Shown piece after piece: positions 19,628 through 37,168 of a stretch of 37,168 nt of DNA. The position numbers and the translations under genes are program-made. This DNA is from a bacterium (GTDB lineage Bacteria > Zhuqueibacterota > Zhuqueibacteria > Oceanimicrobiales > Oceanimicrobiaceae), in the NCBI GenBank assembly GCA_046757165.1, contig JBHHXT010000029.1:1-37168 (forward strand), in the 5' to 3' direction. Below the pieces are notes generated by a model. The model had not been told where the DNA came from and did not search any database. It saw only the letters and a list, made by a program, of their open reading frames with translations. Numbering within the stretch: position 1 is the stretch's first letter; each line of letters opens with the position of its first letter.

Positions 19628-19710
19628 AAAACTTGAAACCTCCTATGTCGTTACACTTTGCAACTTGAAGAAAATAGCAAGGATGAAAGAATTGAAGTCG
19701 ACAAATGTTA

Positions 19711-19739: not shown

Positions 19740-19794
19740 GTTCTTTTTTAGGAATCGACACATTTTCCTGAAGGTTGCGGCCGGCGCCATCACC

Positions 19795-20535: not shown

Positions 20536-20572
20536 GGCCTCTCCTGTAAAAGATACAGGCCCCGGCTGTCTA

Positions 20573-21511
20573 TCACTGTGATTTCTTTTCGAAAACGAGT
20601 CTGAACTTTCTTGGCTGGACGTCACGGTAGCTGACACCCGGGGGCGGGATAATTCGGGCGGGATGTTCCTGGCCGAGCGACTTTCTCACTCGCCGGTAGT
20701 CGATGTACGCAATAATATCATCGCGGTCGATCTGAGTCAGCAAATCCCCTCCGCCTTCCAGAACAAGACTCAACGTGGTCGGGCGGGCGTAGACCGTGAC
20801 ATGCTCCGGAACATGGCGAACCTGCACAGGCACGCCGGTGACCTTTATCTCCACCAGTTCTTGAATGTTCAAATAAATGTCTGTCTGGCTGACGGAAAAC
20901 TCAGTCTTATCGGAGGGCGGGGAGGCCAGGGGCACCTTCTGCTGCAAATCAAATCGCAGGTCAGAGAACTCCTCTTCTGAGGTCGGGATTCTGTCTATCT
21001 GGGACACGATACTTTTCGGCCCGGACACAACGACCGAGTCCGGCGTCAACTGAATCTCGCCCACCGGCGTAAAGCCGGGAGCGACCTCGATTCTAACCTT
21101 TGGCACAATGGCGACGGTTTTCACATGAAAATCGTCGACGACGACGTGAATAGAGTCGGGCAGGATGATCTCTTCGAAAGAGATTGCGCCTGCAGATCTG
21201 GAAAGAAAGATATGCCTCGGCTCGATGAAAAAAGTCTTGTTCTGCTCGACGTCAGACAAATCCAGGTCAACCCGGGCACCGCCACTGAGGCCCAGGGCGA
21301 TCAAATCCTTACCCGATCCCTTCACCTTGACCTTGACACCCTCCAGGATGTCGTCCAGAATAACCTTGCCCTCGGGCAAGTTTACCGTTTCCACCGGAAT
21401 CTCGATAACGTTCTCATACTCGTTTTCGGTGATCACAAAAAACCAGATAAAAATCGCCACAATAAACACGATTAGTTTTATCTTGTAGTTGTGAAAAAAC
21501 GGCAAACTCAT
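20573..21511 (-). CDS. YbbR/CdaR-like protein (N-terminal TM plus YbbR beta repeats)
   Basis: NYKIKLIVFIVAIFIWFFV membrane anchor; repeated V.V.G, P..V.VSGP.S and AYID motifs typical of YbbR domains. Confidence 0.8.
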   Translation of the reverse strand: MSLPFFHNYKIKLIVFIVAIFIWFFVITENEYENVIEIPVETVNLPEGKVILDDILEGVKVKVKGSGKDLIALGLSGGARVDLDLSDVEQNKTFFIEPRHIFLSRSAGAISFEEIILPDSIHVVVDDFHVKTVAIVPKVRIEVAPGFTPVGEIQLTPDSVVVSGPKSIVSQIDRIPTSEEEFSDLRFDLQQKVPLASPPSDKTEFSVSQTDIYLNIQELVEIKVTGVPVQVRHVPEHVTVYARPTTLSLVLEGGGDLLTQIDRDDIIAYIDYRRVRKSLGQEHPARIIPPPGVSYRDVQPRKFRLVFEKKSQ

Positions 21512-21572
21512 TCTCGCATTAGGAACAAGGCATCAAGCAACGACCCGATACCCTGCTCAGATAATCCTTCAT

Positions 21573-21764
21573 CTATTTCAAAGACTGCTGAATCTCCCGT
21601 CCGATACTGACCTCTCCGTTGTCAATGCGAATGTTAAAGCCGCACTTGGGATTGCTGCAGACCCAGGCCTTGTACATTATCGATGAGCCCTCCCTGCCGT
21701 AGTCGGACAGCGGGACGAGTACGCCTGTGTTGCATTTCTGACAGTCAGGAAAAACTTTTTCCAT
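21573..21764 (-). CDS. Small conserved-looking zinc-ribbon protein (63 aa)
   Basis: MEKVFPDCQKCNTGVLVPLSDYG...YKAWVCSNPKCGF has CxxC...CxxxxC; SD GGTGAGG before ATG 21764. Confidence 0.75.
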   Translation of the reverse strand: MEKVFPDCQKCNTGVLVPLSDYGREGSSIMYKAWVCSNPKCGFNIRIDNGEVSIGREIQQSLK

Positions 21765-21849
21765 AGGGTCCTCACCATAAAGGATAAAAAAGGGAGTCAT
21801 AAAACCGAATACATAGATGATTGTTTCTTCACCGCTTAAATGTAAAACT

Positions 21850-21878
21850 ATATTAAAGAATAAATTGAAAAGAAGCAA
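21850..21878 (-). promoter_or_regulatory. Putative sigma70 promoter for the Zn-ribbon/ybbR/rsmE unit
   Basis: TTGCTT-N17-TAATAT just downstream of the rplI terminator; same -35 hexamer as the rpsU promoter candidate. Confidence 0.45.
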
Positions 21879-21900
21879 CCATTTTAATCACACCCAGGAC

Positions 21901-21931
21901 AAAAAAGAAAAAGTGGACCGTAATCCACTTT
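21901..21931 (-). terminator. Rho-independent terminator after rplI
   Basis: Minus strand AAAGTGGA-TTACGG-TCCACTTT followed by TTCTTTTTT. Confidence 0.7.
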
Positions 21932-21964
21932 CTGTCCAACTGAGGCCGCGTTGTCCTGCGCGGG

Positions 21965-22408
21965 TTATTCTTTCACAACCCAGACCTTAATCACGGCCTC
22001 AACTTCACTGTGTAGTTTGATCGGAATCTCGTAGACACCAAGAGCCTTCAGGGGTTCCTCCAGCAAGATTTTGCGACGGTCGATTTCAAACCCTTTGCTG
22101 CTCAGCAATTCCGCGATATTCTGGGACGTCACCGAGCCAAAAATCTTGTCCTCCTCACCGACAGCAACGGGGGCCGTAAGAGAAACACTCTTGAGCTGCT
22201 CCGCCAGAGCCACGGCAGCACGTTTGTCCTTTGACTGCCTGACCTCGATTCGCTTTTTTTCCAGCTCAAAGACTTTTAGGTTCTGAGGTGTCGCCTGGAG
22301 TGCGACCCGACGGGGGATGAGGTAGTTTCTGGCGTAGCCAGCCTTGACTTCAACGATGTCTCCCGGCAGGCCGAGATTCTCGACACCTTCTTTCAAGATC
22401 ACTTTCAT
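21965..22408 (-). CDS. rplI: 50S ribosomal protein L9
   Basis: MKVILKEGVENLG..GDIVEVKAGYARNYLIP, IFGSVT, LKALG; SD GAGGT. Confidence 0.97.
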   Translation of the reverse strand: MKVILKEGVENLGLPGDIVEVKAGYARNYLIPRRVALQATPQNLKVFELEKKRIEVRQSKDKRAAVALAEQLKSVSLTAPVAVGEEDKIFGSVTSQNIAELLSSKGFEIDRRKILLEEPLKALGVYEIPIKLHSEVEAVIKVWVVKE

Positions 22409-22445
22409 GGCACCTCTATTCTGACGATTGAGTTCGCTGTCAACA

Positions 22446-22676
22446 CTATCTAGGATTCTCCATAACATACGGCATCAACGCAAGGTGTCTCGCCCGCTTT
22501 ATGGCACGTTTTACCAATCTCTGGCATCTTGCATCGTTGCCCGAGGTTCGTCTCGGAATAATCTTCCCTTGTTCCGTGACGAATCTCATCAGCAGATCAA
22601 CGTTTTTGTAGTGGATATCTGAGATGGACGGGCCATCCTTCTCATAGAAACGGTTTACTTTTTTCTTCTTTAACAT
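22446..22676 (-). CDS. rpsR: 30S ribosomal protein S18 (lacks the CxxC zinc motif)
   Basis: [26 protein letters not shown]...QR...[13 protein letters not shown]. Confidence 0.95.
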
Positions 22677-22679
22677 GGG

Positions 22680-23186
22680 TTACTCCTTTATTTCAAGCGT
22701 AATATCTTCCAGATCGAAACCGTAGTTTGTTGACTCGAGCTCATCCGTGTCTGTCGAGTCATTCAAAACCTCGACCGAATCAAAAGCCAAGTCATTAGTG
22801 CTTGTTTGATCAACCTGGCTGATTTCCGTATCGCTTCTGGTCTGCCGATTCAAGAATTGAATTCGCCGCGCCTTGATCTCGACAACGTTGTTATGGTTGC
22901 CTTCGCTGGTGGTCCAGCTTCTACTTTGCAGCTCCCCTTCCACAAGCACGGCCGAGCCCTTTCTGAGATGTTCATAACAACTATCGGCAAGCTTATACCA
23001 TGCCACAACGCCTACAAAACAGACATTCTCGCGCCATTGCCCGGTATTGTCTCTAAACTTGCGATTCGACGCGATGTAGAAGTTTGCAACGGGCGTCCCG
23101 TTTGTCGTTCTTCGCAAAGTTGGGTCATTGGTCAAATTTCCTGCAATCAAGACATTGTTGATATCCGGCATTTTTAGACTTGACAT
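22680..23186 (-). CDS. ssb: Single-stranded DNA-binding protein
   Basis: NNVLIAGNLTNDP.LR.T..G.PV..F, VVAW, KGSAVLVEGELQSRSW, IQFL; lies between rpsF and rpsR; SD GGAGGG before ATG 23186. Confidence 0.92.
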   Translation of the reverse strand: MSSLKMPDINNVLIAGNLTNDPTLRRTTNGTPVANFYIASNRKFRDNTGQWRENVCFVGVVAWYKLADSCYEHLRKGSAVLVEGELQSRSWTTSEGNHNNVVEIKARRIQFLNRQTRSDTEISQVDQTSTNDLAFDSVEVLNDSTDTDELESTNYGFDLEDITLEIKE

Positions 23187-23257
23187 AGCCACTCCCTCCA
23201 ATCGACATTAGACGTTCTACGTCCGGAAATTCCTAATCACAGCACTCCATTGCCTGG

Positions 23258-23731
23258 CTAATCTTCCGGTGTTGCGGCTCCCTCGTCACTGATAGCAACC
23301 GGTTCTGATTTTTGCTCTTGCTCCTCGGAAGCACTGTCGGCGGGTTCGCTCTCCGAGTCTGGTGCCGTGCTTTGAGCAGCCGGGGCCTCCGCCGTCGTCT
23401 CCGCCGGAGCCTCCGTTTTCGTCTCTTTCTCTTGCGGATAATTCCTCTTGTCCGCCTTGACGGTCAGGTATCGCAAGACGGACTCTTCCAGGCGGTATTC
23501 CCGCTCCAACAAGCGGGGGAGCGTAGCGGAGCCTTCGAAAAGAAGATGAAAATAGTAGCCATATTGCTTGCGATTGATTTCATAGGCAAGTCGCTTCTTG
23601 CCCCACTCTTCTTTTTTCAGGATGTTGCCGCCGTGGTTCTTGATGAAGCTCTCCACCTTTGTGATAATGGCCTGCACGTCATCAGACTTTTGCTGGGACT
23701 CGATTATGAAGGTTGTTTCATATTTCTGCAA
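23258..23731 (-). CDS. rpsF: 30S ribosomal protein S6 with long acidic C-terminal tail
   Basis: YETTFII, EEWGKKRLAYEI, GYY, VLRYL; TTG start with SD GGAGGTG. Confidence 0.96.
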   Translation of the reverse strand: MQKYETTFIIESQQKSDDVQAIITKVESFIKNHGGNILKKEEWGKKRLAYEINRKQYGYYFHLLFEGSATLPRLLEREYRLEESVLRYLTVKADKRNYPQEKETKTEAPAETTAEAPAAQSTAPDSESEPADSASEEQEQKSEPVAISDEGAATPED

Positions 23732-23814
23732 GTTGCGTTACACCTCCTGTTTAGGGTTTTAGAGTTAATAGTGTGAATGGGTTAAGGTTCATGGGTTGCT
23801 TTTGATCTCTATTC

Positions 23815-25827
23815 CTATACTCTAAATAAGGGCGCCAGGACCAGGGAAATGACGGCCATGAGCTTGATCAGAATATTGATCGAGGGTCCGACCGTGTCCT
23901 TTAGGGGATCCCCGACGGTGTCACCGATGACGGTGGCTTTATGGGTACTCGACCCCTTGCCGCCATAATTTCCTTCTTCAACGAATTTCTTTGCATTGTC
24001 CATTGCACCGCCCGAGTTAGCCATTTGGATGCCAAGCATGACGCCGGTGATGAGCGCGCCAACGAGAAGTCCGGCGAGCGCGGCCGGGCCCAGCCACAGG
24101 CCAACCACGACTGGTGCGATGATCGCCATAGAACCAGGGACAAGCATCCCCTGAATTGCGCCTGTTGTGCTAATATCGACGCACCGGGCTGAATCGGGCA
24201 TGACCTTACCTTCCATAAGGCCGGGGATCTCGCGGAACTGACGGCGAACTTCCTCGATCATCTTAAAAGCAGCCTTGCTGACGGCTTTGAATAACATGGA
24301 GGAAATCAGAAACGGGAGCATGCCGCCGATAAGAAGACCCGCCAACACCGTCGGACTCTTGATGTCAGCCACCTCCACCTGGGCTGATTTCATGTAAGCC
24401 ACCAGCAGCCCGAGTGCAGCAAATGCCGCCGAGCCAATAGCAAACCCCTTGCCCATGGCCGCTGTTGTATTGCCGACGGAATCCAGGTTATCAGTAATCT
24501 TGCGCACCTTCGGGTCGAGTTCTGCCATCTCCGCAATGCCACCCGCGTTGTCTGCAATCGGGCCGTAGGAGTCGACCGCGACCACCATGCCTGTGGTGGC
24601 AAGCATGCCCAGGGCGGCCATGGCAACCCCGTAGATGCCAGCAAACTTAAACGACAGCAACACCGCGATGGCGAGCGCAATGACCGGACCCGCGGTCGAA
24701 GCCATGCCAATAGAAATGCCACCCGTCACGGTCAAAGCCGGGCCACTTTGCGATTCATCAGCAAGCTTCTTGACCGGACCGTACTTGTTCGACGTATAGT
24801 ACTCGCTGAACAAGCCAACAATAACCCCCGAAATGACCCCAGCGATGGTGGCATAAAACGGGCCCATCTTCGCGTAATTATTGCCATCTTCAACAAAATC
24901 AGTGCCGAATTCCCTCACAATGAAGTACGTGGCCAGGGCTGTCAGACCCGCACTGACATAGGTTCCGGCCATCAAAGCGCGCTGTGGGTTCGAGCGGCCG
25001 GTCAGCCGCACATATAGGACCCCGATGATCGACGCCACGATACCGACGCTCGCGATATAAAACGGGAGCATCTGCAAGCTGTCCGTCGTCAGACCGATAA
25101 GCGCGGCAATCGCAAGCGCAGCGATGATCGATTCCACATAGGATTCCAGCAAATCCGCACCGAGGCCGGCGACATCACCGACGTTATCGCCAACATTGTC
25201 GGCAATCACGGCCGGATTGCGCGGGTCATCTTCGGGGATATTCGCCTCCACCTTGCCAACCAGGTCGGCGGCCATGTCTGCACCCTTGGTGAAAATCCCG
25301 CCGCCGCTGCGTGCAAACAGCGCCACCAGGCTGGCGCCCATGGCGTAGCCATTGATGATCGTGGGGTTACCCTCGAAGATGTGGAACATCAGACAGAGGC
25401 CAAACAAGGAGAGTCCGACCACGCTCATGCCCATGACCGCTCCACCGGCAACTGCGATGCTGAGCGCGCCCTGGAGGCCACCCGTGAGGGCGCCCTGTGT
25501 CGTGCGGCTGTTGGCACGCGTAGCGATGCTCATGCCGATGTAGCCGGCCAGTGCTGACGCAATCGCGCCGCAGATGAAGGCGACCGACGTCCTCCAACCC
25601 AGGTCGACCTGGGCGAACTTCGGGGCCAGGGCAATGAGTGCAGAGATGATGAGAACAAAAACACCAATATAGAAATACTCACGCTTCAAGAAAGCCTTTG
25701 CACCGTCCTGTACCGCTTTGGAAATCTCTGCCATGCGTGGACTACCCGGGTCTTTCTTAATAACATCCATGCTTAGATACGCGACAAAACCAAGTGCGAC
25801 CAAACTGGCAATAATTGGAATAATCAA
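23815..25827 (-). CDS. hppA: Membrane-integral pyrophosphatase, K+-dependent, probably Na+-translocating
   Basis: [44 protein letters not shown] (Ala at the K+-dependence position), [12 protein letters not shown] start with SD GGAGG. Confidence 0.95.
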
Positions 25828-25852
25828 GGCGAAATCCTCCTGAAATCTGATC

Positions 25853-26425
25853 CTAATTATATTTGTTCATTGTTTTGGTGATGCCGTGATGGGCAAAAAA
25901 CCGACACGCTTCTGCCGCAGTCCTTATGACGTCTACAAGCGAGTTCCTCTCTTCCAGACAAAACCGCCCGAGCACGAAGCGCACCGGATCGTCGACCTCT
26001 TCCTGCCCGATGCCAATGCGCAATCGCGGGAAAGAATGGTCTTGCAGATGCGCGATGATGGATTTGAGGCCATTGTGGCCACCAGCGCTCCCTTTGCGCT
26101 TGAACCGAAGTCTGCCAAAAGGAAGATTGAAATCGTCCAAGATAACGAGAAGATTGCTCAGAGGAATATTGGAGTTATCAACAACTTCAGATACAGCAAC
26201 TCCGCTTCTATTCATGTAAGTCAGGGGCTTTAGCAAAATAACACGATGTTCGTCACTTAGTCTGATCTCAAACCGAGAGAAAATTCTACTCTTTTTTTCA
26301 GATACCTTGTCATGATCATGCGTCCGGAGGAGTTCATCAATCACCATGAAGCCAACGTTGTGTCGCGTGTGCTTGTACTTTGCTCCGGGATTCCCCAGTC
26401 CGACGAACAGATGTCTGGCGTGCAT
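25853..26425 (-). CDS. pth: Peptidyl-tRNA hydrolase
   Basis: VGLGNPG..Y..TRHNVGF, KPLTYMNRSG, GGHNGLKSI, RLRIGIG. Confidence 0.97.
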   Translation of the reverse strand: MHARHLFVGLGNPGAKYKHTRHNVGFMVIDELLRTHDHDKVSEKKSRIFSRFEIRLSDEHRVILLKPLTYMNRSGVAVSEVVDNSNIPLSNLLVILDDFNLPFGRLRFKRKGSAGGHNGLKSIIAHLQDHSFPRLRIGIGQEEVDDPVRFVLGRFCLEERNSLVDVIRTAAEACRFFAHHGITKTMNKYN

Positions 26426-26458
26426 AAGGTATGACTGAACTCAAAGCGCAGCCAGCAC

Positions 26459-27106
26459 TTACTCCTGTGCGCCCGCAGTTTCGTCTGCTTCTTCCTTTTT
26501 CTCGCCAACGACTTCGGGCTCGGCGACCTCTTCTTCGACCGCTTCGGGCTCTTTCGCAACCGTTGGTGGCCGCACGATGGCGATCGATTGATCGGCGTCG
26601 TTCAGGATTTTGACCCCTTCGATGGAGATGTCCCCAACATGGATAGCGTCCCCCACGTCAAGGTCTGAGATATCGACCTCCAGATGTTCCGGGATATCCA
26701 GCGGCAAGCACTCAATGGCAAGCTCGCGCAGCACCTGTTGCATCACACCGCCGGCGTTTTTCACGCCTGTCGATGTGCCAACAACGTGCACAGGAATGGT
26801 AACGTTCACCTTTTCTGTCAGTTTGATGCCCATGAAATCGACGTGCAAAGGATGGCCGGCGACCGGATGCCACTGGACATCTCGAACCACGCACTTCATC
26901 TTTTTTTTGCCATCCAGTGCCAGATCGATGACGCTGGATTCGGAATAGATCACGCTCTTAAACTCTTTCGCATCAATGGAAAGCGGAATAGGAGCCTCGC
27001 CGTGTATGTAGTAAACAGCCGGCACGCGCCCAGAGCGTCTCAGCCTCTTGTTTTCTTTCTTGTCGATTGTCATTCTTGCTTCAACATTCAACACGACTTC
27101 TGACAT
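26459..27106 (-). CDS. rplY: 50S ribosomal protein L25 / Ctc (long form)
   Basis: RLRRSGRVPAVYY, QWHPV...LHVDF, GVKNAGG, LPLDIPEHLEVDISDL. Confidence 0.96.
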   Translation of the reverse strand: MSEVVLNVEARMTIDKKENKRLRRSGRVPAVYYIHGEAPIPLSIDAKEFKSVIYSESSVIDLALDGKKKMKCVVRDVQWHPVAGHPLHVDFMGIKLTEKVNVTIPVHVVGTSTGVKNAGGVMQQVLRELAIECLPLDIPEHLEVDISDLDVGDAIHVGDISIEGVKILNDADQSIAIVRPPTVAKEPEAVEEEVAEPEVVGEKKEEADETAGAQE

Positions 27107-27120
27107 ATTGCTCTCCAGAT

Positions 27121-28056
27121 TTAGTCAAATAAAGAACTGATAGACTCTTCCCCATGTATTCGCTTAATCGCTTCACCAAACAAATGAGAAGCGGTCAGGA
27201 TATCTATTTTGTCAATACGCTTTTCCGCTGGCAAGCACACGGTATCAGTGATTTTCATTTTTGTAATCGGCGCCTCGTCAAGCCTTTCGAGGGCCGGGCC
27301 GGATAAGACCGGATGCGTACAAGCCACATAAATTTCCTGGGCGCCGTTTTTCTTCAACGCGACTGCCGCGTTGCAAAGGGTGCCGGCCGTGTCAACAAGG
27401 TCGTCGATGATTAGAATGTTTCGCCCCGACACATCTCCAATGATGTTGACGATCTCGGTTTCATTATGCTTGGGCCGACGTTTGTCAATGATAGCGAGCG
27501 GGGCATTTAGTCGTTTTGCATACGCTCGTGCCATGGTGATCCCGCCGACATCTGGAGACAGAACGGTGAGGTTGGGCACATTCATCTCCCGGAAATGGTC
27601 GCAGAAGATGGTTGAGGAGTACAGGTGGTCTAGCGGGATATCGAAGAAGCCCTGAATTTGCGGCGCATGCAGGTCCATGGCCAGGATGCGATCTGCGCCG
27701 GCGGTGGTCAACAGGTTCGCGACTAATTTCGCGGTGATCGAAACCCGGGGCTGGTCTTTGCGGTCCTGCCGGGCGTAGCCAAAATAAGGGATCACCGCGG
27801 TAATGCGCTCCGCCGATGCCCGTCTGGCAGCATCGAGCATGATGAGCAACTCCATGAGATTGTCCGAGGGCGAGTGGGTCGACTGCACAATAAAGACATC
27901 GGCGCCACGCACGTTCTGGTTGTACTTCACCCAGATTTCGCCGTCGCTAAAATAGCTGATGACGGCATCGCCCAACTGCACCTGCAGATAGTCCGCGATT
28001 TTTTCCGCCAGGGGGCGGTTTGAGTTGCCGGAAAAGAGGACTGGATTCGGTAACAT
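27121..28056 (-). CDS. prs: Ribose-phosphate pyrophosphokinase
   Basis: FSDGE, PYFGYARQDRK, DLHAPQIQGFF, SPDVGG, IDDLVDTAGT. Confidence 0.97.
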   Translation of the reverse strand: MLPNPVLFSGNSNRPLAEKIADYLQVQLGDAVISYFSDGEIWVKYNQNVRGADVFIVQSTHSPSDNLMELLIMLDAARRASAERITAVIPYFGYARQDRKDQPRVSITAKLVANLLTTAGADRILAMDLHAPQIQGFFDIPLDHLYSSTIFCDHFREMNVPNLTVLSPDVGGITMARAYAKRLNAPLAIIDKRRPKHNETEIVNIIGDVSGRNILIIDDLVDTAGTLCNAAVALKKNGAQEIYVACTHPVLSGPALERLDEAPITKMKITDTVCLPAEKRIDKIDILTASHLFGEAIKRIHGEESISSLFD

Positions 28057-28135
28057 GGTTTATATTCTTTAAACATAGAAAATGACGGTAACCCATCGCG
28101 GATTCCGCCATTTCGATCGTTCTTCGAGACTTTTG

Positions 28136-28207
28136 CTGAGGCGGGAGGATTCGAACCTCCGAATGCTGGGACCAAAACCCAGTGCCTTGCCACTTGGCGA
28201 CGCCCCA
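28136..28207 (-). tRNA. tRNA-Gln(TTG)
   Basis: Cloverleaf TGGGGCG TC GCCAAGTGGCAAGGC A CTGGG TT TTG GT CCCAG CATTC GGAGG TTCGAAT CCTCC CGCCTCA G; U1-A72 pair. Followed by CAA, so CCA is not encoded. Confidence 0.96.
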
Positions 28208-28224
28208 GACTCTCGATTTATGGT

Positions 28225-28530
28225 TTAGCGCTCCTCCACCGGTGAGCTAACATTTTGCGAGAGTTCCCCACCTTCCTGCTTCAACGAGTTCTGGTACTTG
28301 TCCAGAATCTGCTTTTCAAGATAGTCGCGAAATGAGTTGCGAATGGGATGCGCGATATCCCGATAGGATCCATCCGGCATTCTTCGGCTTGGCATGCTGA
28401 TAAAATAGCCGTTCGAGCCCTTAATAATCTTCATCCCGCGGACAACGAATTGATCATCGAAGGTGACATTAACGAAGGCCTTAAGTTTGTCTTCGTTCCG
28501 TAAACTGATGTTGATTTCTGTTATCTCCAT
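28225..28530 (-). CDS. spoVG: SpoVG family nucleic-acid-binding regulator
   Basis: MEITEINI...KLKAFVNVTFDDQFVVRGMKII.G..G.FISMPSRR..DG.YRDIAHPI; SD GGAGGGAGGT. Confidence 0.95.
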   Translation of the reverse strand: MEITEINISLRNEDKLKAFVNVTFDDQFVVRGMKIIKGSNGYFISMPSRRMPDGSYRDIAHPIRNSFRDYLEKQILDKYQNSLKQEGGELSQNVSSPVEER

Positions 28531-28715
28531 ACCTCCCTCCATAGAAATGACTATTCTATGCGAGTACTCTTCATTTCTTGCAGAAAATCGCAAAAGACGA
28601 GGAGCCTTATGACCAGCAGCGACGCATCCCGACTTCCCTCCGCAATATAAAAATAGGTGTCGCGCCGTGCCGCGACAGGAATAACTCCACACCCACTTCT
28701 ATGTGAAGCAATGAG

Positions 28716-29603
28716 TTAGTTGATCTCATCGTATCCCCAGGCGATGAAACGGCTCACAAATGTGCGATAATCGGGAAATAACCGTTGAGCGTTTTCCGCC
28801 CTACTCTTTCTCTCGAACAGGCCAAAAATTGTGGACCCGGAGCCCGACAAACTCACAAATTGCGCTCCGTTTTCTAACATCCCTCTCTTCACCGCTGCGA
28901 GTTCTGGATATTTCGCAAAAACAGTTGCTTCAAAATCGTTGCTCAGGAGGCCAAAGAAATCTACATCCTTGATAATTTTGTCCTTAAAACTCAAGAAATT
29001 ACGATTTTTTTTGCTCATTGTCAAGTCTAAATTCAAATTCTCGTACGCCCATCTGGTTGAAACATAAATTTCGGGAAAAACCACTAAAATCGTCTTTTGA
29101 GCCACAGGCCGTTCGAGTGGCTCCAGACGGTCTCCCCTGCCCGTGGCGAACGCAGTACCGCCCCGGATGAAAAACGGAACATCCGAGCCTAGCTGCGCTG
29201 CCAGACAGGTGAGCATGTCCACGCTCAAATCAAGATTCCACAACCTGTTGAGACCCAGCAAGGTCACCGCGCCGTTGCTGCTCCCGCCGCCAAGGCCAGC
29301 TCCGACCGGGATCACTTTCGCCAACCGGATCTCAGCGCCTGAGGTGACGTGCGCGTGTTCCTGTAGAAGCTTTGCAGCGCGAAAACACAAATTCGTATGG
29401 TCATTCGGCAAAGATGGGGCGTTGCTATGGAAAACTATTTGTCGGTCCTTACGCACCGTGAGCTGGATGTCGTCCTGCAGATCGATCTGCTGTAAGATGG
29501 TCTCAATGTCATGAAATCCATCCTTACGCTTGCCCTTAACATACAACCCCAGGTTGATTTTCGCATAGGAGGGCAGGCGAATCGACTGGCTGGAGACAGG
29601 CAC
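28716..29603 (-). CDS. ispE: 4-diphosphocytidyl-2-C-methyl-D-erythritol kinase
   Basis: AKINLGL, IPVGAGLGGGSSN, LGSDVPFF, NDFE, LSGSGST; GTG start 3 nt after the BMC gene stop. Confidence 0.95.
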   Translation of the reverse strand: MPVSSQSIRLPSYAKINLGLYVKGKRKDGFHDIETILQQIDLQDDIQLTVRKDRQIVFHSNAPSLPNDHTNLCFRAAKLLQEHAHVTSGAEIRLAKVIPVGAGLGGGSSNGAVTLLGLNRLWNLDLSVDMLTCLAAQLGSDVPFFIRGGTAFATGRGDRLEPLERPVAQKTILVVFPEIYVSTRWAYENLNLDLTMSKKNRNFLSFKDKIIKDVDFFGLLSNDFEATVFAKYPELAAVKRGMLENGAQFVSLSGSGSTIFGLFERKSRAENAQRLFPDYRTFVSRFIAWGYDEIN

Positions 29604-29606
29604 GGC

Positions 29607-30062
29607 TCACGACTCGTAGTATTCACGAAACTTTTCCAGCAATATCTGTTTGTTCGCTTTCGAGATGTCCCTTCCGTGAATCGGGAACCCGGACAACTCT
29701 CTGGCCAGTCTTCGGAGCTGCCGGACGGGAAGCTGTGCGATGTGCTCGAAACTTTTTGGGGACCCCGGGGGATGAGCGGAAAGAGTGACTTCCTCATAGA
29801 CCATTGCTTCGATGCTTTCATGGGGTCTGGGGATGACATGGCAGGAGACGAGTTCGCCGATTTTCTCAGCAGCCGCTGCGCCGGCATCAACGGCCGACCT
29901 GACCGCGGCCACCTCACCCTGGACCTTCACGGTGATGAGGGCAGCGATGGTTGTTTCCGCTCCCACAAGCTTCACATTTGCCGCTTTCACCATCGCATCG
30001 GCGGCTTCGATAGCGCCGACCAGGCCTTTGGTTTCAATCAGACCCAGAGCCTTGTCATCCAT
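29607..30062 (-). CDS. BMC-H microcompartment shell protein with ~60-aa C-terminal extension
   Basis: [26 protein letters not shown]...GEVAAVRSAVDAG...HVIPRPH, then a Pro-rich linker and a basic helical domain. Confidence 0.93.
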   Translation of the reverse strand: MDDKALGLIETKGLVGAIEAADAMVKAANVKLVGAETTIAALITVKVQGEVAAVRSAVDAGAAAAEKIGELVSCHVIPRPHESIEAMVYEEVTLSAHPPGSPKSFEHIAQLPVRQLRRLARELSGFPIHGRDISKANKQILLEKFREYYES

Positions 30063-30132
30063 ATTGTTCTGTTGTCACACAATCCATACCATTTGAGGCC
30101 TTGTGCCTCGGCTTGTCATCGTCTTTATGGAT

Positions 30133-30417
30133 TTACGAGTCGGCTCGCTCAGGTAGCATCATTTCGACATCTGCGTGCGGCCTCGGGATGACGTGCACTG
30201 AAACCAATTCGCCTACTTTTTCTGCGGCAGATGCGCCGGCATCGGTCGCCGCCTTAACGGCGCCAACATCGCCCCTGACCATCACGGTCACATATCCACC
30301 ACCGATTTTTTCTTTCCCGATCAACGCCACTTTGGCTGCTTTAACCATGGCATCGGCAGCCTCGATTGCTCCCACCAGCCCTCGGGTTTCGATCATTCCT
30401 AAAGCGTCTAAGCTCAT
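30133..30417 (-). CDS. BMC-H microcompartment shell protein (EutM/PduA-like)
   Basis: [24 protein letters not shown]...[25 protein letters not shown]...HVIPRPH; SD AAGGAG. Confidence 0.97.
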
Positions 30418-30484
30418 GCAGTGGAACTCCTTCCTTTAGTTAAGTTCCAAGAGAGATTCTCCAAAGTATTGCCATGAAGTGTAA

Positions 30485-30513
30485 AGTATAACGATTCTAT
30501 GAAACATTGTCAA
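30485..30513 (-). promoter_or_regulatory. Near-consensus sigma70 promoter for the BMC-H/ispE operon
   Basis: TTGACA-atgtttcatagaatcgt(17)-TATACT on the minus strand, about 68 nt upstream of the first BMC ATG. Confidence 0.8.
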
Positions 30514-30559
30514 CCATTTTTTCCGCTTGCAGCTTACCACACTTTTCGCGTCAAATGGG

Positions 30560-30588
30560 TTGCATTTTAGCTCCTGAACCTCTACTTT
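30560..30588 (+). promoter_or_regulatory. Putative sigma70 promoter for lpxH
   Basis: TTGCAT-N17-TACTTT ending 9 nt before the ATG. Confidence 0.45.
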
Positions 30589-30597
30589 CAGCCAAAA

Positions 30598-31335
30598 ATG
30601 GAGACGCTTTATTTCATTTCCGATGTCCACCTCGGCGCTCATTCCGAAGATATCGAAAAGCTCAAGATTTCCCGACTTCTGTCATTTCTGAAGTCTGTGC
30701 GGCATCAAGCCGACTATCTTTATATCGTTGGCGATTTGTACGACTTCTGGTTCGAGTACTACAAGGCGATTCCGAAAGTCAACTTGAAAGTCCTGGCAGC
30801 GCTCAGCGATCTGGTCGAATCTGGCACCGTGGTGCGATATTTTATTGGCAACCATGATCTGTGGCACGAATCCTATCTCGAAAGCGAGATTGGCGTCCAC
30901 ATTTTTCATGAACCGTTGGAAACACGCCATAACACCCTGAAGCTTTTCGTTGCGCACGGCGACGGTCTGGCCGACGGAGAGTGGAAGGTCAGACTCATCA
31001 AACGGATTTTGAAGAATCGCGCCAATATTTTCCTCTATCGACTGCTGCACCCTGACCTGGGCATCCCGCTGGCCAGGCTTTTTTCAAATCGCAGCAAAAA
31101 GAAAGGGGCAAATCGGTTCATCGATGAATATCGAAAATTCGCCCACGCCAAATTGCAGGACGGATTTGATGCGGTCATCCTGGGGCATACGCACCAGCCG
31201 GTTTTTGAACAAACCGACTCCAAGTACTATATCAACCTCGGAGATTGGGTGAAGAATTTCACTTATGTGAAAATGACAGGGACAAGCTTGGAGCTCAAGA
31301 CGTGGCACGAAACACAAATCCCAAATTTCAAATAA
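30598..31335 (+). CDS. lpxH: UDP-2,3-diacylglucosamine diphosphatase (LpxH-like metallophosphoesterase)
   Basis: FISDVHLG, VGDLYDFWFEY, GNHD, AHGDG, GHTH, YINLGDW. Has GNHD rather than the proteobacterial GNRD. Confidence 0.85.
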   Translation: METLYFISDVHLGAHSEDIEKLKISRLLSFLKSVRHQADYLYIVGDLYDFWFEYYKAIPKVNLKVLAALSDLVESGTVVRYFIGNHDLWHESYLESEIGVHIFHEPLETRHNTLKLFVAHGDGLADGEWKVRLIKRILKNRANIFLYRLLHPDLGIPLARLFSNRSKKKGANRFIDEYRKFAHAKLQDGFDAVILGHTHQPVFEQTDSKYYINLGDWVKNFTYVKMTGTSLELKTWHETQIPNFK

Positions 31336-31470
31336 TTTTCAAGCACCAAATTTGAAAGTCCAAACTCGGTGTAGGACGACCCGAAAAATGATGAACGTTC
31401 ACTCAATTGACCGAAGAAGTTTGGAGCTTGAGATTTAGAATTTATTTGGGATTTGGCCATTTGGGATTTG
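31315..31470. repeat. Inverted-repeat element built from degenerate CAAATCC heptamers (MITE/REP-like)
   Basis: Perfect 12-bp terminal IR CAAATCCCAAAT (31315-31326) / ATTTGGGATTTG (31459-31470, second copy 31444-31455); inner IR TCCAAACT (31359-31366) / AGTTTGGA (31418-31425). Confidence 0.8.
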
Positions 31471-31560
31471 CGACTTTGTCGCGCTAGGATTTTGTCGAAA
31501 CTTCAACCTTGTTAGATGGTATAAGACTCAGTCAACCCGTAATCAAATTCAGGATTGATC

Positions 31561-33771
31561 ATGAGAAGGAAATCAAGAGATTCGTCAGACGATTCGGACG
31601 CAGGCTCAATTTCAGTTTTTTTGCGGCAAAAGAGGGCAAATCTTCTGCTGGTCGGCAGCGCCCTTGCTGTCCTGACTGGCGTGGTTTATCTCTACGTCAT
31701 CACTCGTGAGTTGCCCTCCTTGAAACAATTGGAGGCATACAGACCAAAACTGGCCTCGAAAGTCTACTCGGTGGACATGAAGCTGATCCACGAGTACTAC
31801 ATTGAAAAACGAAGCTTCGTGCCTCTGGAGGAAATGCCTGAAGCCCTGGTTCAAGCCGTCATCGCCACAGAAGACCGCAAGTTTTATGGCCACTGGGGGA
31901 TGGATGTTCGCCGGCTCATTGCGGCGGTTTTTAAGAATATCCTGGCTGCGAGCTTTAAAGAAGGCGCCAGTACGCTCACGCAACAGCTCGCCCGACAGCT
32001 TTACCTGAGCAGCGAGAAGACCATCACCCGCAAGATGAAAGAGCTGATTACCGCGATTCAAATCGAGCGCACCTACACCAAGCCTGAAATTCTCGAGATG
32101 TACTTGAACCACATGTATTTCGGCCACAGTGCCTACGGTGCGCAGTCTGCGGCTCTGACCTACTTCCGCAAGAATGTGGATGAGCTGACGACCGATGAAT
32201 GCGCGATTCTCGTCGGATTGCTGAAGGCGCCTAACAATTATACGCCGATCCGCCATCCCAACCGCAGCCTGACGCGGAGAAATATCGTGCTCAATGCCAT
32301 GCGGGAGATGGAGTACATCGATGACGAGCAATATGCTGAATGGGTCAAGAAACCCATCGAAGTGGCCAAGCGAGGCAAGGAGGCTTATGGCCTGGCACCG
32401 TACTTCACCGAGTACATTCGCCAGATCATGCAGGAAAAATATGGCTACGATCTCTACACGGATGGACTGTCCATCTATACGACGCTTGATAGCCGGGCGC
32501 AATATGTGGCGGAAAGAGCGGTCGAGGCGCACATGCCAACACTTCAGAAGGCCGTTCTGGAATACTATAGAAAGAAAAACCTGACCGCTCACTTTCTGAG
32601 CGAAGAATTCATGCGCAGCCATGACATGGAGGCCCTCCTGCAGGACTCCACGTTCGTCGATTCCGTGGTGTACTCGAAAGTCAAGGCAGAGGTGGCGCTG
32701 GTCTCCATCGATCCCCGCAATGGCCACATTCTGGCGTTCATCGGCGGGCGTGATTTTTCGCAATCAAAGTTCATCCGGGCCGTGCAGGCGCGCAGACAAC
32801 CGGGGTCGGCGTTCAAGCCTTTTATCTACACTGTTGCCATCGACAACGGCTATCCGCCGACTCATGAAGTGCTCAACCAGCCGGTGGTCAATTTCATGGC
32901 AAACGACGAGCGATGGAAACCGAAGAATTTCGACGGCAAGTTCGGCGGACCAACGACCTTCAGAGAAGGGCTGCGGCGCTCGTTGAACCTGGTCACCGTG
33001 CGGGTGCTGCAAGGCGTGATCAAAAACCCACAGACCATCGTCAATTACGCCCACAAAATGGGCATCAAATCTCCGTTACAGGCCGTCGATGCCATCGCGC
33101 TTGGGGCATCCGACGTCACCCCTCTCGAAATCACCTCCGCCTACGGCACCTTTGCCAACGGCGGCATCCTGGTCGACCCGATTCCTATTTTACGCATTGA
33201 AGACAAAAACGGTAACGTGCTCGAACAGTTCTATCCGAATAGCCAGGAAGTGTTGCGCAGAGAAACAGCCTTCATCATGACGGATATGCTCAGAACCGTG
33301 ATCGACCGCGGCACAGGAGGGCGGGCGAGATGGCGTTACAAATTCATGCGGCCCGCGGGAGGCAAAACCGGCACCACAAATGACAGTAGCGACGCCTGGT
33401 TTCTGGGCTTCACGCCACAAATCGTCACGGGCGTCTGGGTCGGCATCGATGATTACAGCGTGGGCAATTTCAAGCTGACACTCGGACCGAAGCAGACGGG
33501 ATCGAGTGCCGCCCTGCCAATCTGGGCCCCCTACATGAAGGCGGTTCATGACACGCTCGCCTTGCCGGTGCTCAACTTCGAGATGCCGGAAGGCGTTGTG
33601 CGCGTCGAGATTTGCGCAGACTCCAAATTGTTGGCCCGGGATAACTGCCCGTGCAAAGTCGTCGAGGAAGTATTCTTCAAAGACCAGGCGCCTACCGAGA
33701 CGTGTGACAAACATGTGAAGCTGAGCAGGCGTAAGGGAAAGCGCAAGGAGAAGGGAAGGAAGCGGTTTTAG
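31561..33771 (+). CDS. Class A penicillin-binding protein (PBP1A family)
   Basis: N-terminal TM; transglycosylase EDRKFYGH.G, GASTLTQQLAR, RKMKE; transpeptidase SAFK, SLN, KTGT. Confidence 0.95.
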   Translation: MRRKSRDSSDDSDAGSISVFLRQKRANLLLVGSALAVLTGVVYLYVITRELPSLKQLEAYRPKLASKVYSVDMKLIHEYYIEKRSFVPLEEMPEALVQAVIATEDRKFYGHWGMDVRRLIAAVFKNILAASFKEGASTLTQQLARQLYLSSEKTITRKMKELITAIQIERTYTKPEILEMYLNHMYFGHSAYGAQSAALTYFRKNVDELTTDECAILVGLLKAPNNYTPIRHPNRSLTRRNIVLNAMREMEYIDDEQYAEWVKKPIEVAKRGKEAYGLAPYFTEYIRQIMQEKYGYDLYTDGLSIYTTLDSRAQYVAERAVEAHMPTLQKAVLEYYRKKNLTAHFLSEEFMRSHDMEALLQDSTFVDSVVYSKVKAEVALVSIDPRNGHILAFIGGRDFSQSKFIRAVQARRQPGSAFKPFIYTVAIDNGYPPTHEVLNQPVVNFMANDERWKPKNFDGKFGGPTTFREGLRRSLNLVTVRVLQGVIKNPQTIVNYAHKMGIKSPLQAVDAIALGASDVTPLEITSAYGTFANGGILVDPIPILRIEDKNGNVLEQFYPNSQEVLRRETAFIMTDMLRTVIDRGTGGRARWRYKFMRPAGGKTGTTNDSSDAWFLGFTPQIVTGVWVGIDDYSVGNFKLTLGPKQTGSSAALPIWAPYMKAVHDTLALPVLNFEMPEGVVRVEICADSKLLARDNCPCKVVEEVFFKDQAPTETCDKHVKLSRRKGKRKEKGRKRF

Positions 33772-33915
33772 GCGCTGACAGGGGAAACTCAGCGTGCGCC
33801 TGGCGAAACGTTCACTGGCACGGCGTGGTGCAGCTCTCTGACTTGCATTTCCCGAACACTCAACGCCCACAGTATCTCGTTGTCTCGATTCCTGCAGCAA
33901 GCTGAAAGAGTTTTT

Positions 33916-36021
33916 ATGAAGAACTCCTGCTCACTGCTCCACTTTCTTATGCTCACCCTGGTCTTTGGCTGCGCCAGTATGGACCTCGAGCTCAACAACT
34001 GGCAAAAGCTTCCAAAGGAGCATTACACCATTCCACCTTACGCCCGCTATCTCAAAGAGTACAAGATTGCTATCGATCCTGGCCACGGCGGCAATGCACA
34101 CCTGCCGGGCTATAAACGTGGCCCCACAGGAAGACGTGAGGCCGTGATGAATCTCAATGTTGCTCGTTTCCTGAAAGAGTTTTTGGAGAAAGCCGGTGCC
34201 GAGGTTTTTCTGACACGCGAGGACGACCGCTTCGTCGCGCTGCAAGAGCGGGTGGAGCTGGCTGAGGAGGCCGGCTGTGACCTTATGCTCTCCCTGCACC
34301 ACAACGCGAGCAACAATCCGCAAACGAACTACGCCGCGGTCTTCTATCATCTCACTCCGGACACCTCCCCCATCAGCATGGACCTGGCGCGCAACATCTA
34401 CTTTGGGCTGGTCGATGCCCTGCACCTGCCGCAGGTCGTGGACGATGGGCTTCTGACAGACAAGATCATCTATCCGGCGGGATTCGGCTTGCTGCGCCGT
34501 TCCAGGATACCGGCTATTCTGCTGGAATCCTCCTTTTATTCACACGCCCAGGAGGAGAAGCGGCTCAGCAATTTGCGCTACAATCGCAGGGAAGCTTACG
34601 GCATTTTTCTCGGCCTGGCACGCTGGGTCGCCGGCGGCGTCCCCAGTGCGCGCAAGCTCTCACCAGCGACAATTTCGGATAATAAACGGCCAACCATCGA
34701 GTATCAACTCCGGGATGGGATCAGCGAGCGTGGCGGTCGCAATCTCGACCGACTGCTCATTTTCTCCCAATCGGTTGCGGCGCGCATCGACGGCCAGCAC
34801 GTGCCGGTCGAACTCTCTGAGGACAGAAGCAAGGTCGCGTTCCAGCCCGACACGCTCCTGACCAATGGCATCCACACCCTGCAGGTCGATCTTCAAAACC
34901 TGTACAAAAATCACAATTTTCCACGCCTTGACACTCTGATTATCTCCGCGCCCACGGATTCGATCGACTTCCAGGTCGCGACTCCGTACGTTCCCGCAGA
35001 CACGCTGGCACAAATTCCCATCCGGCTGGCGCTCTTCGACAAAGATGGTGAGCTGGTTTGGGACAGCACCCGGGTTGAGCTGCGGGCAACGAGAGGCCGG
35101 GTGGAACCCGCCCGACCACGGCTGCACGCGGGCAGGACAACTGTTTACTACAGAAGCGGGGCTGAAATCGGACTCGCCTATGTGACAGCGGCCTCCGGCG
35201 CCACTGAAGACACGCTCCTTCTCTCTCTCACCCCGACGGGGCAGTCATGGATTGTCAGCGGCACAGTCATCGATGACTCCACACTCGCCCCTATCGCCGG
35301 CGCGACCGTCACCTTGAACGAGTCCATTTCGGCGCTCACCGATGAAAACGGCACCTACTTTTTTGCCAACCCAACCGTTGGCGGGCAGCGTCTTATCGTC
35401 AGCAAGGACGGATACGAGGCAGCGGCGCAGGGCGTTCACATTGACTCCAGCCGCAGCCAGTTGCTCAACTTCCGACTCAAAGCTCACTTAGGAGGCCTGT
35501 TGCACAATGAGGTGATCATTCTGGATGCCGCTCTGGGAGATACGGCAACCGGGGCCATTTTCAGCGACAGCCTGAACGCAGCGCAGGCCAACCTTCAATT
35601 AGTGCAGCAGCTCGCTGCTACTCTGCGCCGGGCCGGCTCACACCCGGTTTTGGTGCGAGACAAGGATCGATGGCTGTCGTCGCGGGAGCGCATCAAACAG
35701 GTCAACGAACTGCCAGAAGGGTGGTACCTCAAATTCGGCTACGAAAAGTGGGATTCCGATTCGCTCTTCGTCCAAACGACCATTTACCCGGCAAATAAGA
35801 CCGGGGAAAAGATCGCGACTCATGTTTTGCAGGCCTTCTCAACCCGTGTGGGCGCAACAGGTGAATTGCGGCAAAACACCGAGGTCCCGGAAGTGACCTA
35901 CACCAACAAAACGGCCGTTGAGGTGATCGTCAAATGCCGTCAACCGTTGATTCGCGAGCGCGATCTGAAGGCCATTTTTGCCGCGATTGTTGATTTTAGA
36001 CGTGAAGAGTTCGACAATTGA
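33916..36021 (+). CDS. Lipoprotein N-acetylmuramoyl-L-alanine amidase (Amidase_3 + Ig-like + carboxypeptidase-regulatory-like + degenerate second amidase domain)
   Basis: Lipobox-like LVFGC; IDPGHGG, REAVMNL, LSLHHNA, ILLESSF; VSGTVIDD...PIAGATV...TDENGTY; ATG 33916. Confidence 0.88.
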   Translation: MKNSCSLLHFLMLTLVFGCASMDLELNNWQKLPKEHYTIPPYARYLKEYKIAIDPGHGGNAHLPGYKRGPTGRREAVMNLNVARFLKEFLEKAGAEVFLTREDDRFVALQERVELAEEAGCDLMLSLHHNASNNPQTNYAAVFYHLTPDTSPISMDLARNIYFGLVDALHLPQVVDDGLLTDKIIYPAGFGLLRRSRIPAILLESSFYSHAQEEKRLSNLRYNRREAYGIFLGLARWVAGGVPSARKLSPATISDNKRPTIEYQLRDGISERGGRNLDRLLIFSQSVAARIDGQHVPVELSEDRSKVAFQPDTLLTNGIHTLQVDLQNLYKNHNFPRLDTLIISAPTDSIDFQVATPYVPADTLAQIPIRLALFDKDGELVWDSTRVELRATRGRVEPARPRLHAGRTTVYYRSGAEIGLAYVTAASGATEDTLLLSLTPTGQSWIVSGTVIDDSTLAPIAGATVTLNESISALTDENGTYFFANPTVGGQRLIVSKDGYEAAAQGVHIDSSRSQLLNFRLKAHLGGLLHNEVIILDAALGDTATGAIFSDSLNAAQANLQLVQQLAATLRRAGSHPVLVRDKDRWLSSRERIKQVNELPEGWYLKFGYEKWDSDSLFVQTTIYPANKTGEKIATHVLQAFSTRVGATGELRQNTEVPEVTYTNKTAVEVIVKCRQPLIRERDLKAIFAAIVDFRREEFDN

Positions 36022-36023
36022 GA

Positions 36024-36689
36024 TCAAAATCTGCGCGCGGCGCGGTATTGAATCCTGAACTTAAAGGGCACCGCAATCCAGACCTTCACCGCCCTGTCAC
36101 GCTGTCGGGCCGGATGCCATTTTGAGGCCCTGAGCCCCGCGACCGCTGCTTCTTCAAACCCCACATGGAGCCCAGATTCCTTGAGAACCATAACTTTGCT
36201 CGGATTGCCATCCTGGTCGACCAGAACGCCAACAACGACCATTCCCTCGATCCGATTTTCCAGGGCGTGCTGCGGATACTCAACTTTGCGATGGATTGCC
36301 TTCAGACCGCCCTTGAGCCTGGGAGGGACTTCATGGGGTACAAAGGTGAATTCCTCGTACGGGTCGGGCATCTCAGGAGGCGGGGGCAGGGAGACGAACT
36401 CCAGCTCCACGGGCATGATGGTGGCATTCACGGGCATTGCCTCGTTTTCAATCGGAACCGGAACCCGCGGAAGTCGCGGCGGTGGCGGCTTGCGGTACTG
36501 ATACGTACGAGCAATATCTTCGATCTCGATTTTCACTTTGTGCAATTTACCAGACATCCTTGCAGGCCTAAGACCGGGCAACGCATGCAGCAAACCAATG
36601 ACCGAAAGAAGGGAGACGATCAAAGAAAGTTCGATCGCTTTGCGGTAGTTCCGTTTCAGCTCGTCCTTGCGAAGGGTTGACTTCTCCAT
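36024..36689 (-). CDS. TonB family energy transducer
   Basis: N-terminal TM with His; Pro-rich linker; C-domain YPQHA...IEGMVVVGVLVD..G...FEEAA...WHPARQ...V.F. Confidence 0.88.
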   Translation of the reverse strand: MEKSTLRKDELKRNYRKAIELSLIVSLLSVIGLLHALPGLRPARMSGKLHKVKIEIEDIARTYQYRKPPPPRLPRVPVPIENEAMPVNATIMPVELEFVSLPPPPEMPDPYEEFTFVPHEVPPRLKGGLKAIHRKVEYPQHALENRIEGMVVVGVLVDQDGNPSKVMVLKESGLHVGFEEAAVAGLRASKWHPARQRDRAVKVWIAVPFKFRIQYRAARRF

Positions 36690-36886
36690 ATTCCTTGAGA
36701 AATTAATTAGAATTGAACTTTGTTTATGAGTGTTACATCGAATCGTAAGAGGGAAAGCTTAAACTAGCTAAGAGAATAATACGCAGGCGCTATTTCTTCA
36801 TGACTCGAATAGTCACGGCCGGCTGCCGCATCTTATGAGGTCTGGCCAAGATACACACTCTCTGACTGTGTTTTGAGAGGCACCGG

Positions 36887-37129
36887 ATGAACAAAGCGAC
36901 CCAAAAACTTCTCGTCCGCGAAGCGGCCATTCTGCTCCTCATTCTCCTGATCGGATACGTCTTCTACGCCGATGGCTCCAAGAGCTTTCGTTATCCGCTC
37001 AGTGCCCGTCCTGAAATCAAGCTGCATTTCCTGCAGCTTGGCAAAGCGATTATGATATTTGGCTATCCAACGCTTTTGCTGCTCAGGTTCGGATTGAAAA
37101 AGTTGCGGGAGGTCAGAAAAAAGGAATAG
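36887..37129 (+). CDS. Small hypothetical membrane protein (2 TM)
   Basis: 80-aa ORF with SD GAGAGG, two hydrophobic segments and a basic C-tail; no family recognised. Confidence 0.6.
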   Translation: MNKATQKLLVREAAILLLILLIGYVFYADGSKSFRYPLSARPEIKLHFLQLGKAIMIFGYPTLLLLRFGLKKLREVRKKE

Positions 37130-37168
37130 CGAAGGAGTTCACTCATCTTGCTGTGCAACGTGAAACGG

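Follow-up and report, generated by a model that had tools for sequence, protein, structure and literature searches.

The window analyzed here, a stretch of 37,168 nucleotides (nt) of contig JBHHXT010000029.1 (assembly GCA_046757165.1) from a bacterium of the family Oceanimicrobiaceae, phylum Zhuqueibacterota, carries two genes for hexameric proteins from the shell of a bacterial microcompartment (BMC), BMC-H1 and BMC-H2, immediately before ispE. Judged from gene content across the genome, these hexamers are probably the facets of a scattered microcompartment of the FRAG3 type, which would act as an SPU-like metabolosome for deoxyribose-5-phosphate. The locus itself and its link to ispE are ordinary, and the added value of the analysis is a cargo list for a catalogued microcompartment type: the FRAG3 type and the hint given by DeoC are already known, and candidate enzymes with extensions at other loci are added here. 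The original prediction, made from the sequence alone, had called the shell genes enzyme-less and allowed for a non-canonical shell structure, with unknown cargo. These descriptions find no support, as the genome encodes three pentamers (BMC-P), an aldehyde dehydrogenase (AldDH), PduL, DeoC, RpiB, and a class II aldolase, the enzymes bear extensions that track the shell, and the shell set fits the published FRAG3 type.

The source genome (G000) is a 99.98% complete draft of 6.09 Mb in 531 contigs. It was compared with 60 relatives, 47 with BMC-H genes and 13 without; the shell-less set covers six families, and some of the relatives' genomes are incomplete. Extension counts rest on the loci fetched, a best-scoring subset of 50 DeoC, 30 RpiB, and 29 aldolase loci plus those of G000.

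Shell and enzyme genes across the genome

BMC-H1 (30133..30417, minus strand) is a 94-amino-acid (aa) standard EutM/PduA/HO-like hexamer of family PF00936 with the pore loop KIGGGY. It scores 133.5 bits against the EutM model NF012018 (cut-off 133), is close to PDB 4axj and to the HO (Haliangium) BMC-H 5djb, and is 87-95% identical across most relatives; its PRPH motif was found in all 27 sequences compared. BMC-H2 (29607..30062, minus strand; 151 aa) matches PF00936 at residues 5-80 and has a divergent pore loop, TTIAAL, where BMC-H1 has KIGGGY. DAMVKAA and PRPH are present in each hexamer, as had been predicted, and the pair are the only PF00936 matches in G000, both single-domain; several near-complete relatives likewise have only two.

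PF03319 identified three pentamer genes. Two lie on contig C31, after genes for an ECF sigma factor, a likely anti-sigma factor, and a PDZ protease (L006:8785-11984, minus strand), and the third lies on C39 in a run of mutase, BMC-P, deoC, and pyrimidine-nucleoside phosphorylase (pdp) genes, with the BMC-P end 20 nt before deoC. DeoC scores 281 bits against TIGR00126, and its catalytic-motif Asp and two Lys align with those of solved DERA structures. An acetylating AldDH gene followed by pduL is found on C53; this AldDH scores 580 bits against TIGR02518, below the cut-off of 620, with 5j78 as its best PDB match. RpiB is encoded on C9, the class II aldolase, whose nearest solved structures are fuculose-phosphate aldolases, on C197, and acetate kinase on C6. 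The shell system is thus spread over six contigs of the draft assembly, with the hexamers on C29, the pentamers on C31 and C39, and the enzymes on C53, C9, and C197. In eight relatives, a distance of 5-8 kb separates the hexamers from the pentamer-deoC pair; joining C29 to C39 was attempted, and no overlap was found at either C29 end.

The genome-wide search therefore yielded two hexamers, three pentamers, and five extended enzymes, which supports the predicted genomically distributed BMC with its hexamer pair behind a housekeeping-type promoter. Within the window itself, the reported absence of pentamer, trimer, AldDH, and PduL genes was confirmed among the 32 open reading frames (ORFs) scanned against families. 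We found no canonical eut, pdu, or GRM locus elsewhere: there is no other BMC-H, EutB was not found in a search whose control was positive, and the lone glycyl-radical enzyme of G000 has no shell gene nearby. The diol dehydratase search was uninformative, as it had no working control.

Two further features of the pentamer loci were seen. The pair on C31 has a TTGACT-type upstream sequence and, with the genes ahead of it, represents shell genes set in another housekeeping or stress locus. The pentamer-deoC gap is an insertion hot spot in relatives, and the small gene pairs found there vary from one relative to another and resemble toxin-antitoxin systems (L140, L145, L149, L157, L159, L155, and L163). 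We rejected these inserts as pathway genes because of this appearance and because they are unrelated among relatives.

Terminal extensions and candidate targeting tags

DeoC, AldDH, the class II aldolase, RpiB, and PduL are all extended. The extensions of the first three resemble encapsulation peptides; RpiB and PduL instead share a single module. DeoC begins with a 60-aa extension made of a helix and the motif CNWCWVCPDC (L007:10289-10470, plus strand), AldDH ends in an amphipathic helix (a terminal helix was present in 17 of the 17 orthologues examined), and the aldolase has a Cys-rich linker and a C-terminal amphipathic helix that is the most amphipathic of all. A combined tag hidden Markov model (HMM), which detects similar tags only, was applied to the termini of 6,981 long ORFs. 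At E < 0.02 it picked out AldDH, DeoC, and the aldolase and nothing else, and the next E value was 0.61. IspE and Prs gave no match in the tag scan, in agreement with the prediction that they lack an encapsulation-peptide-like end.

The shared module of about 45 residues occupies the RpiB N terminus (L058:1963-2106, minus strand) and the PduL C terminus (L053:10798-10947, plus strand). The two copies are homologous (hhalign, 99%), and just these 2 of the 46,894 ORFs in G000 carry it. No Pfam family covers the module; it weakly matches parts of TIGR02536, EutQ, and PduM (16, 11, and 7 of 17 members, respectively, at E values up to 0.1), and it may be a cargo-docking domain. As for the DeoC extension, CNWCWVCPxC is almost invariant, a CxxCxxC variant occurs in other families, and the motif is a possible metal or Fe-S site.

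Co-occurrence and inheritance

Shell-bearing and shell-less relatives differ in the metabolosome core. BMC-P was found in 45 of the 47 shell-bearing genomes, PduL in 42, and the AldDH family in 43, and each was found in 0 of the 13 shell-less ones. The control, an Fe-type alcohol dehydrogenase (Fe-ADH; 36/47 versus 6/13), does not track the shell. DeoC, RpiB, and aldolase genes occur in most genomes regardless, and it is their extensions that follow the shell: the Cys domain of DeoC is present in 27 of 32 genomes with ispE-adjacent shell genes (the remaining 5 have a short helix) versus 0 of 11 shell-less ones, the RpiB module in 12 of 15 versus 0 of 8, and the aldolase tail in 21 of 21 versus 0 of 6. 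Ten relatives have their shell genes away from ispE. Among eight DeoCs examined from these, three were RpiB-DeoC fusions, three had a short helix, and two had no extension, and none of the eight stand-alone RpiBs carried the module. RpiB-DeoC fusions of the SPU3 type were observed in family f6 of the class, at loci L152, L154, and L164 (genomes G053, G050, and G044).

In the AldDH tree, the 17 orthologues group in a single clade (98/97), and their nesting roughly follows family and order, which fits vertical inheritance. In three Gemmatimonadota loci, the same hexamer pair stands beside the same divergent metallophosphoesterase gene, and directly after the pair come AldDH and a PduL that bears the shared module; for one of these loci, the AldDH identity is 47% over 530 columns. 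A relative of the same family, G017, has no hexamers, pentamers, AldDH, PduL, or RpiB and has kept the promoter, a hairpin, and ispE (L190:2670-3110; L142). This hairpin is nearly identical to the one after BMC-H2 in another relative (G006), with no shell genes between promoter and hairpin, and the DeoC of G017, which nests among tagged DeoCs, retains only the first helix turn of the tag. From these sequences, G017 reads as a coordinated loss of the system.

Comparison with known microcompartment types

FRAG3 comprises eight loci in Calditrichaeota, KSB1, and LCP-89, with scattered genes and no assigned function, and FRAG microcompartments as a group are described there as enigmatic (Sutter et al. 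2021, PMC8217296). The set that defines FRAG3 is a triplet of pentamers, one BMC-H of standard and one of extended form, and DeoC beside a pentamer (PMC8217296, supplementary file 4). G000 likewise has scattered components, three BMC-P, and a DeoC (DeoC/LacD in the catalogue) adjoining a BMC-P, and its 94- and 151-aa hexamers parallel the standard BMC-H and the one that is extended at its C terminus by about 50 residues. For FRAG3, neither AldDH nor PduL, RpiB, or a class II aldolase is mentioned in the catalogue's text, whereas G000 has five extended enzymes at other loci; the position of ispE is also absent from that text, which, rather than the locus diagrams, was the basis of comparison. 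Its encapsulation-peptide HMM searches in FRAG genomes are reported to have given no matches. Relatives of G000 hold RpiB-DeoC fusions and MIC4-like loci, types that the catalogue lists for KSB1, which makes KSB1 the likely lineage of the host. In the open literature, FRAG terms were found only in the catalogue and its preprint, and none of the papers that joined FRAG with Calditrichaeota or KSB1 dealt with this system, judged by title or start of abstract.

According to the text of the SPU study, the DERAs of SPU loci are extended at the N terminus, unlike DERAs not associated with BMCs (Dwyer, Sutter and Kerfeld 2024, PMC11585597), RpiB occurs in most SPU subtypes, and PduL occurs in SPU1, 4, and 7. 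G000 resembles this type in its DeoC (PF01791, DERA), with N-terminal extension and intact catalytic residues, its extended RpiB, its PduL and pentamer triplet, an acylating AldDH whose terminal helix is at the C terminus, as it is in SPU6, and a class II aldolase that ends in a tail. It differs in that its RpiB extension is an EutQ/PduM-like module, where that text describes a plain helix, and in the CxxCxxC of its DeoC. Because the genes lie on six contigs and form no single locus, we regard the system as SPU-like in its working and do not file it as SPU.

The same tandem pair of standard and extended BMC-H occurs in FRAG1 (Ignavibacteria) and FRAG8 (Gemmatimonadetes), and FRAG8 also shares DeoC and an AldDH with a C-terminal peptide. 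FRAG1 differs in that it is described in the catalogue's text as shell-only with a larger extension, and in the loci seen, its pair does not stand before ispE. The Gemmatimonadota loci differ as well, with AldDH and PduL directly after the hexamer pair in all three.

Promoters and the link to ispE

The near-consensus promoter-like site reported upstream of the two BMC-H genes, TTGACA-N17-TATACT (sigma70 type; 30485..30513, minus strand), is present in the sequence and is predicted to head BMC-H1, BMC-H2, and ispE. It is the top sigma70-like site in 19000-37168, with 11 of 12 matches, and all 28 loci tested, G000 among them, have a TTGAC[AT]-N17-TAnnnT motif no more than 140 nt from BMC-H1; the background for this motif is 328 sites on both strands of the 6.09-Mb genome. 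As the hexamer pair would use ispE's housekeeping-type promoter, the shell is likely made constitutively, and on this evidence and the AldDH tree, constitutive expression and vertical inheritance are both likely. Constitutive expression has already been suggested for satellite-like loci (Axen et al. 2014, PMC4207490).

The gene ispE (28716..29603, minus strand) encodes a CDP-ME kinase with a GTG start and scores 266 bits against TIGR00154 (cut-off 138.7); BMC-H2 stops 3 nt ahead of this GTG, as originally reported. The order is conserved: BMC-H immediately precedes ispE in 36 of the 47 shell-bearing relatives (it lies elsewhere in 10 and at a contig end in 1), and the arrangement occurs in 18 of 20 members of the source family. 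The claim that the shell genes are coupled to ispE thus stands as far as adjacency goes, and we reject functional coupling. The gap ranges from 3 nt in G000 to about 310 nt among relatives; of 27 BMC-H-adjacent loci, 9 (G000 not among them) have a terminator-like hairpin ahead of ispE, as do 7 of 22 loci without adjacent BMC-H, against 62 of 2,000 random windows. Without the shell, ispE survives in 12 of 13 relatives with the same neighbors, the order ispE-(spoVG)-prs-rplY is identical there, and 13 of 22 genomes without adjacent BMC-H have the promoter motif no farther than 300 nt from ispE. Loci labelled Ignavibacteria, Rhodothermales, and Gemmatimonadota have the hexamer pair without ispE. 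We conclude that ispE is likely a neighbor or passenger of the shell genes and not cargo.

A second promoter-like site, TTGACA-N17-TAATTT (28996..29024, minus strand), lies within the ispE coding sequence and is predicted to drive spoVG, tRNA-Gln, prs, and the genes that follow. TTGAC[AT]-N17-TAnnnT stands at identical ispE codons in 47 of 49 genes and is missing from the remaining 36,705 nt of their sequence, and other Leu-Thr pairs are coded TTGACA in only 3 of 62 cases; this conservation of a codon pair that is rare elsewhere makes it likely that spoVG and the genes after it have their own promoter, and that ispE is the main gene to share the promoter of the shell pair. The 185-nt gap between ispE and spoVG holds a hairpin with a weak T tail (28658..28677, minus strand), which is weak evidence alone, as 28 terminator-like sites were found versus 20.5 expected. 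In Escherichia coli, a prs promoter lies inside ispE (ychB). The open literature search, with most subscription papers outside its reach, returned no paper on a promoter inside ispE. For BMC together with ispE or spoVG, the open literature yielded only a paper on Poribacteria whose text reports high BMC-H transcription and mentions ispE separately (PMC5087111).

The C-terminal tail of BMC-H2

The original prediction had overlooked the gap with its hairpin, the site inside ispE, and the odd pore loop and tail of BMC-H2. This tail is a basic, helical, Rho_N/HeH-like domain of about 55 aa (about 29610-29780, minus strand). Its neighbors among the predicted structures of the Atlas are BMC+Rho_N proteins and Rho N termini, with TM scores of 0.7-0.9 over a short stretch, and it is present in 19 of 24 second hexamers examined, with a net charge of 0 to +6. 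A parallel may be drawn with an SPU-type shell protein of Asgard microcompartments, the basic tails of which bind DNA according to the text of a preprint (PMC12747264). No paper on an EutK/Rho tail combination turned up in the open literature search, which left most subscription papers out of reach.

Proposed pathway and competing explanations

Gene content and order, extensions, and joint presence or loss were observed; expression, encapsulation, and substrate are inferred, as follows. With genes around the pentamer-deoC pair, pyrimidine-nucleoside phosphorylase and the mutase, a member of the phosphohexomutase family, are likely to provide deoxyribose-5-phosphate, which encapsulated DeoC would cleave, giving glyceraldehyde-3-phosphate along with acetaldehyde, by analogy with SPU biochemistry as described in that study's text (PMC11585597). 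Tagged acetylating AldDH would convert acetaldehyde to acetyl-CoA, PduL would yield acetyl-phosphate with recycling of CoA, and cytosolic acetate kinase would form ATP; RpiB and the class II aldolase are probably packaged along with these enzymes. As there is no operon, the peptide tags and the small module common to RpiB and PduL would have to direct assembly. FRAG3 would then be a scattered SPU-like organelle, with a shell of two hexamers and three pentamers without trimers and a shared module that may dock cargo. This gives FRAG3 a concrete parts list of five shell proteins and five extended enzymes that are gained or lost together, which makes its function testable.

Several observations weigh against this assignment. 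The relatives are kin and not independent, with one family supplying 5 of the 13 shell-less genomes, and many of them hold additional BMC loci, a possible source of some AldDH and PduL matches. P values overstate the co-occurrence, given this kinship, the incomplete genomes, and the additional loci. Since orthologues were used to train the tag HMMs, their matches here do not independently prove targeting. The class II aldolase, a second signature candidate, is tagged too. DeoC is the sole DERA-type gene of G000 and is also found in shell-less relatives, and so may also act in the cytosol. On the supply side, the mutase scores as an archaeal-type GlmM (TIGR03990), with the phosphopentomutase 9ix8 only its fourth PDB match, and no DeoB was found in G000. 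All SPU subtypes have BMC-Ts according to the text of the SPU study (PMC11585597), whereas G000 has no BMC-Ts, BMC-Tdp, or PduS, and no dedicated regulator was seen: the PF00936 scan revealed no BMC-T in this 531-contig draft, and PduT- and PduS-like queries from relatives gave no match at E 1e-5. NAD+ recycling is consequently unaccounted for, and Fe-ADH, which we rejected as cargo because its presence is independent of the shell genes, is of no help here.

The class II aldolase could instead be the main signature enzyme of the same scattered organelle, cleaving fuculose-, rhamnulose-, or 5-deoxyribulose-1-phosphate as in PVM-like/MIC4 BMCs, with DeoC secondary or both substrates handled. Its nearest solved structures would fit, as would its Cys-rich linker, its highly amphipathic terminal helix, the strict distribution of its tail, and its adjacency to pentamer or hexamer genes in several relatives. 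We nonetheless consider this rather unlikely, as AldDH falls on the acetaldehyde (EutE/AdhE) branch of the tree, far from the AldDHs of aldolase-type loci in two relatives (G010 and G027), a pentamer gene directly precedes deoC-pdp, and a PVM-type lactate/malate dehydrogenase is absent near all shell loci inspected. It is quite improbable that the system is decaying or free of cargo, with relic shell genes left after loss of PduS and BMC-T and tags that merely aggregate enzymes in the cytosol. The lack of BMC-T and PduS matches in G000 would be explained in this way, given that the relatives' trimer loci inspected have a PduT-like gene in four of four cases and a PduS-like gene in three of four, and whole-system loss is seen in G017; yet all shell genes and the five enzymes have open frames, BMC-H1 is highly conserved, and a two-hexamer complement recurs in near-complete relatives. 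Least probable of all, and to be credited only very slightly, is the originally proposed growth-linked, non-canonical shell tied functionally to IspE or translation genes. Conserved adjacency, the 3-nt gap, the promoter motif in every locus tested, and the basic Rho_N-like tail of BMC-H2 speak for such a tie; against it stand the pentamer triplet and tagged metabolosome core that co-occur with the hexamer pair, the persistence of ispE without the shell, the variable gaps, the hairpins, the conserved site inside ispE, and the loci that have the pair without ispE.

The deoxyribose-5-phosphate metabolosome could be taken further, to a class-wide, vertically inherited, and operon-free organelle made constitutively from genes wedged in housekeeping loci, with cargo addressed only by tags and an EutQ/PduM-like docking module, and with the Rho_N-like tail of BMC-H2 binding nucleic acid and so anchoring the organelle on the nucleoid or on the DNA or RNA it recycles. 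We offer this extended model as a speculation that is more doubtful than the metabolosome assignment itself. If true, the organelle would serve housekeeping nucleoside turnover and not an inducible diet.

Other features of the window and genome

A divergent metallophosphoesterase gene (30598..31335, plus strand; PF00149/PF12850), presumably LpxH-like, forms the conserved left border of the shell locus and is the same in relatives with and without BMC-H and in the three Gemmatimonadota loci. On the other side, the housekeeping run of spoVG (ATG at 28530), tRNA-Gln, prs, rplY, pth, hppA, rpsF, ssb, rpsR, and rplI (21965..28530, minus strand) has the gene order originally given and is outside the microcompartment. 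Two short ORFs without Pfam match lie on the minus strand nearby. That at 21573-21878 ends in a Cys-containing protein of 60 residues, with a likely start ATG near 21763, and that at 19536-19793 overlaps an apparent ribosomal S21 gene at 19430-19627. Elsewhere in the genome, an acyl-protein-synthetase-like gene is followed by a divergent aldehyde dehydrogenase-like gene (L054:3191-6026, plus strand), both labelled by appearance on weak family matches, and no shell link was seen. A signalling cluster at 4817-14747 of the window (minus strand) encodes a hybrid sensor kinase of 2,093 aa, another kinase-receiver protein, and one each of a SpoIIE-type phosphatase, STAS protein, and Hpt protein.

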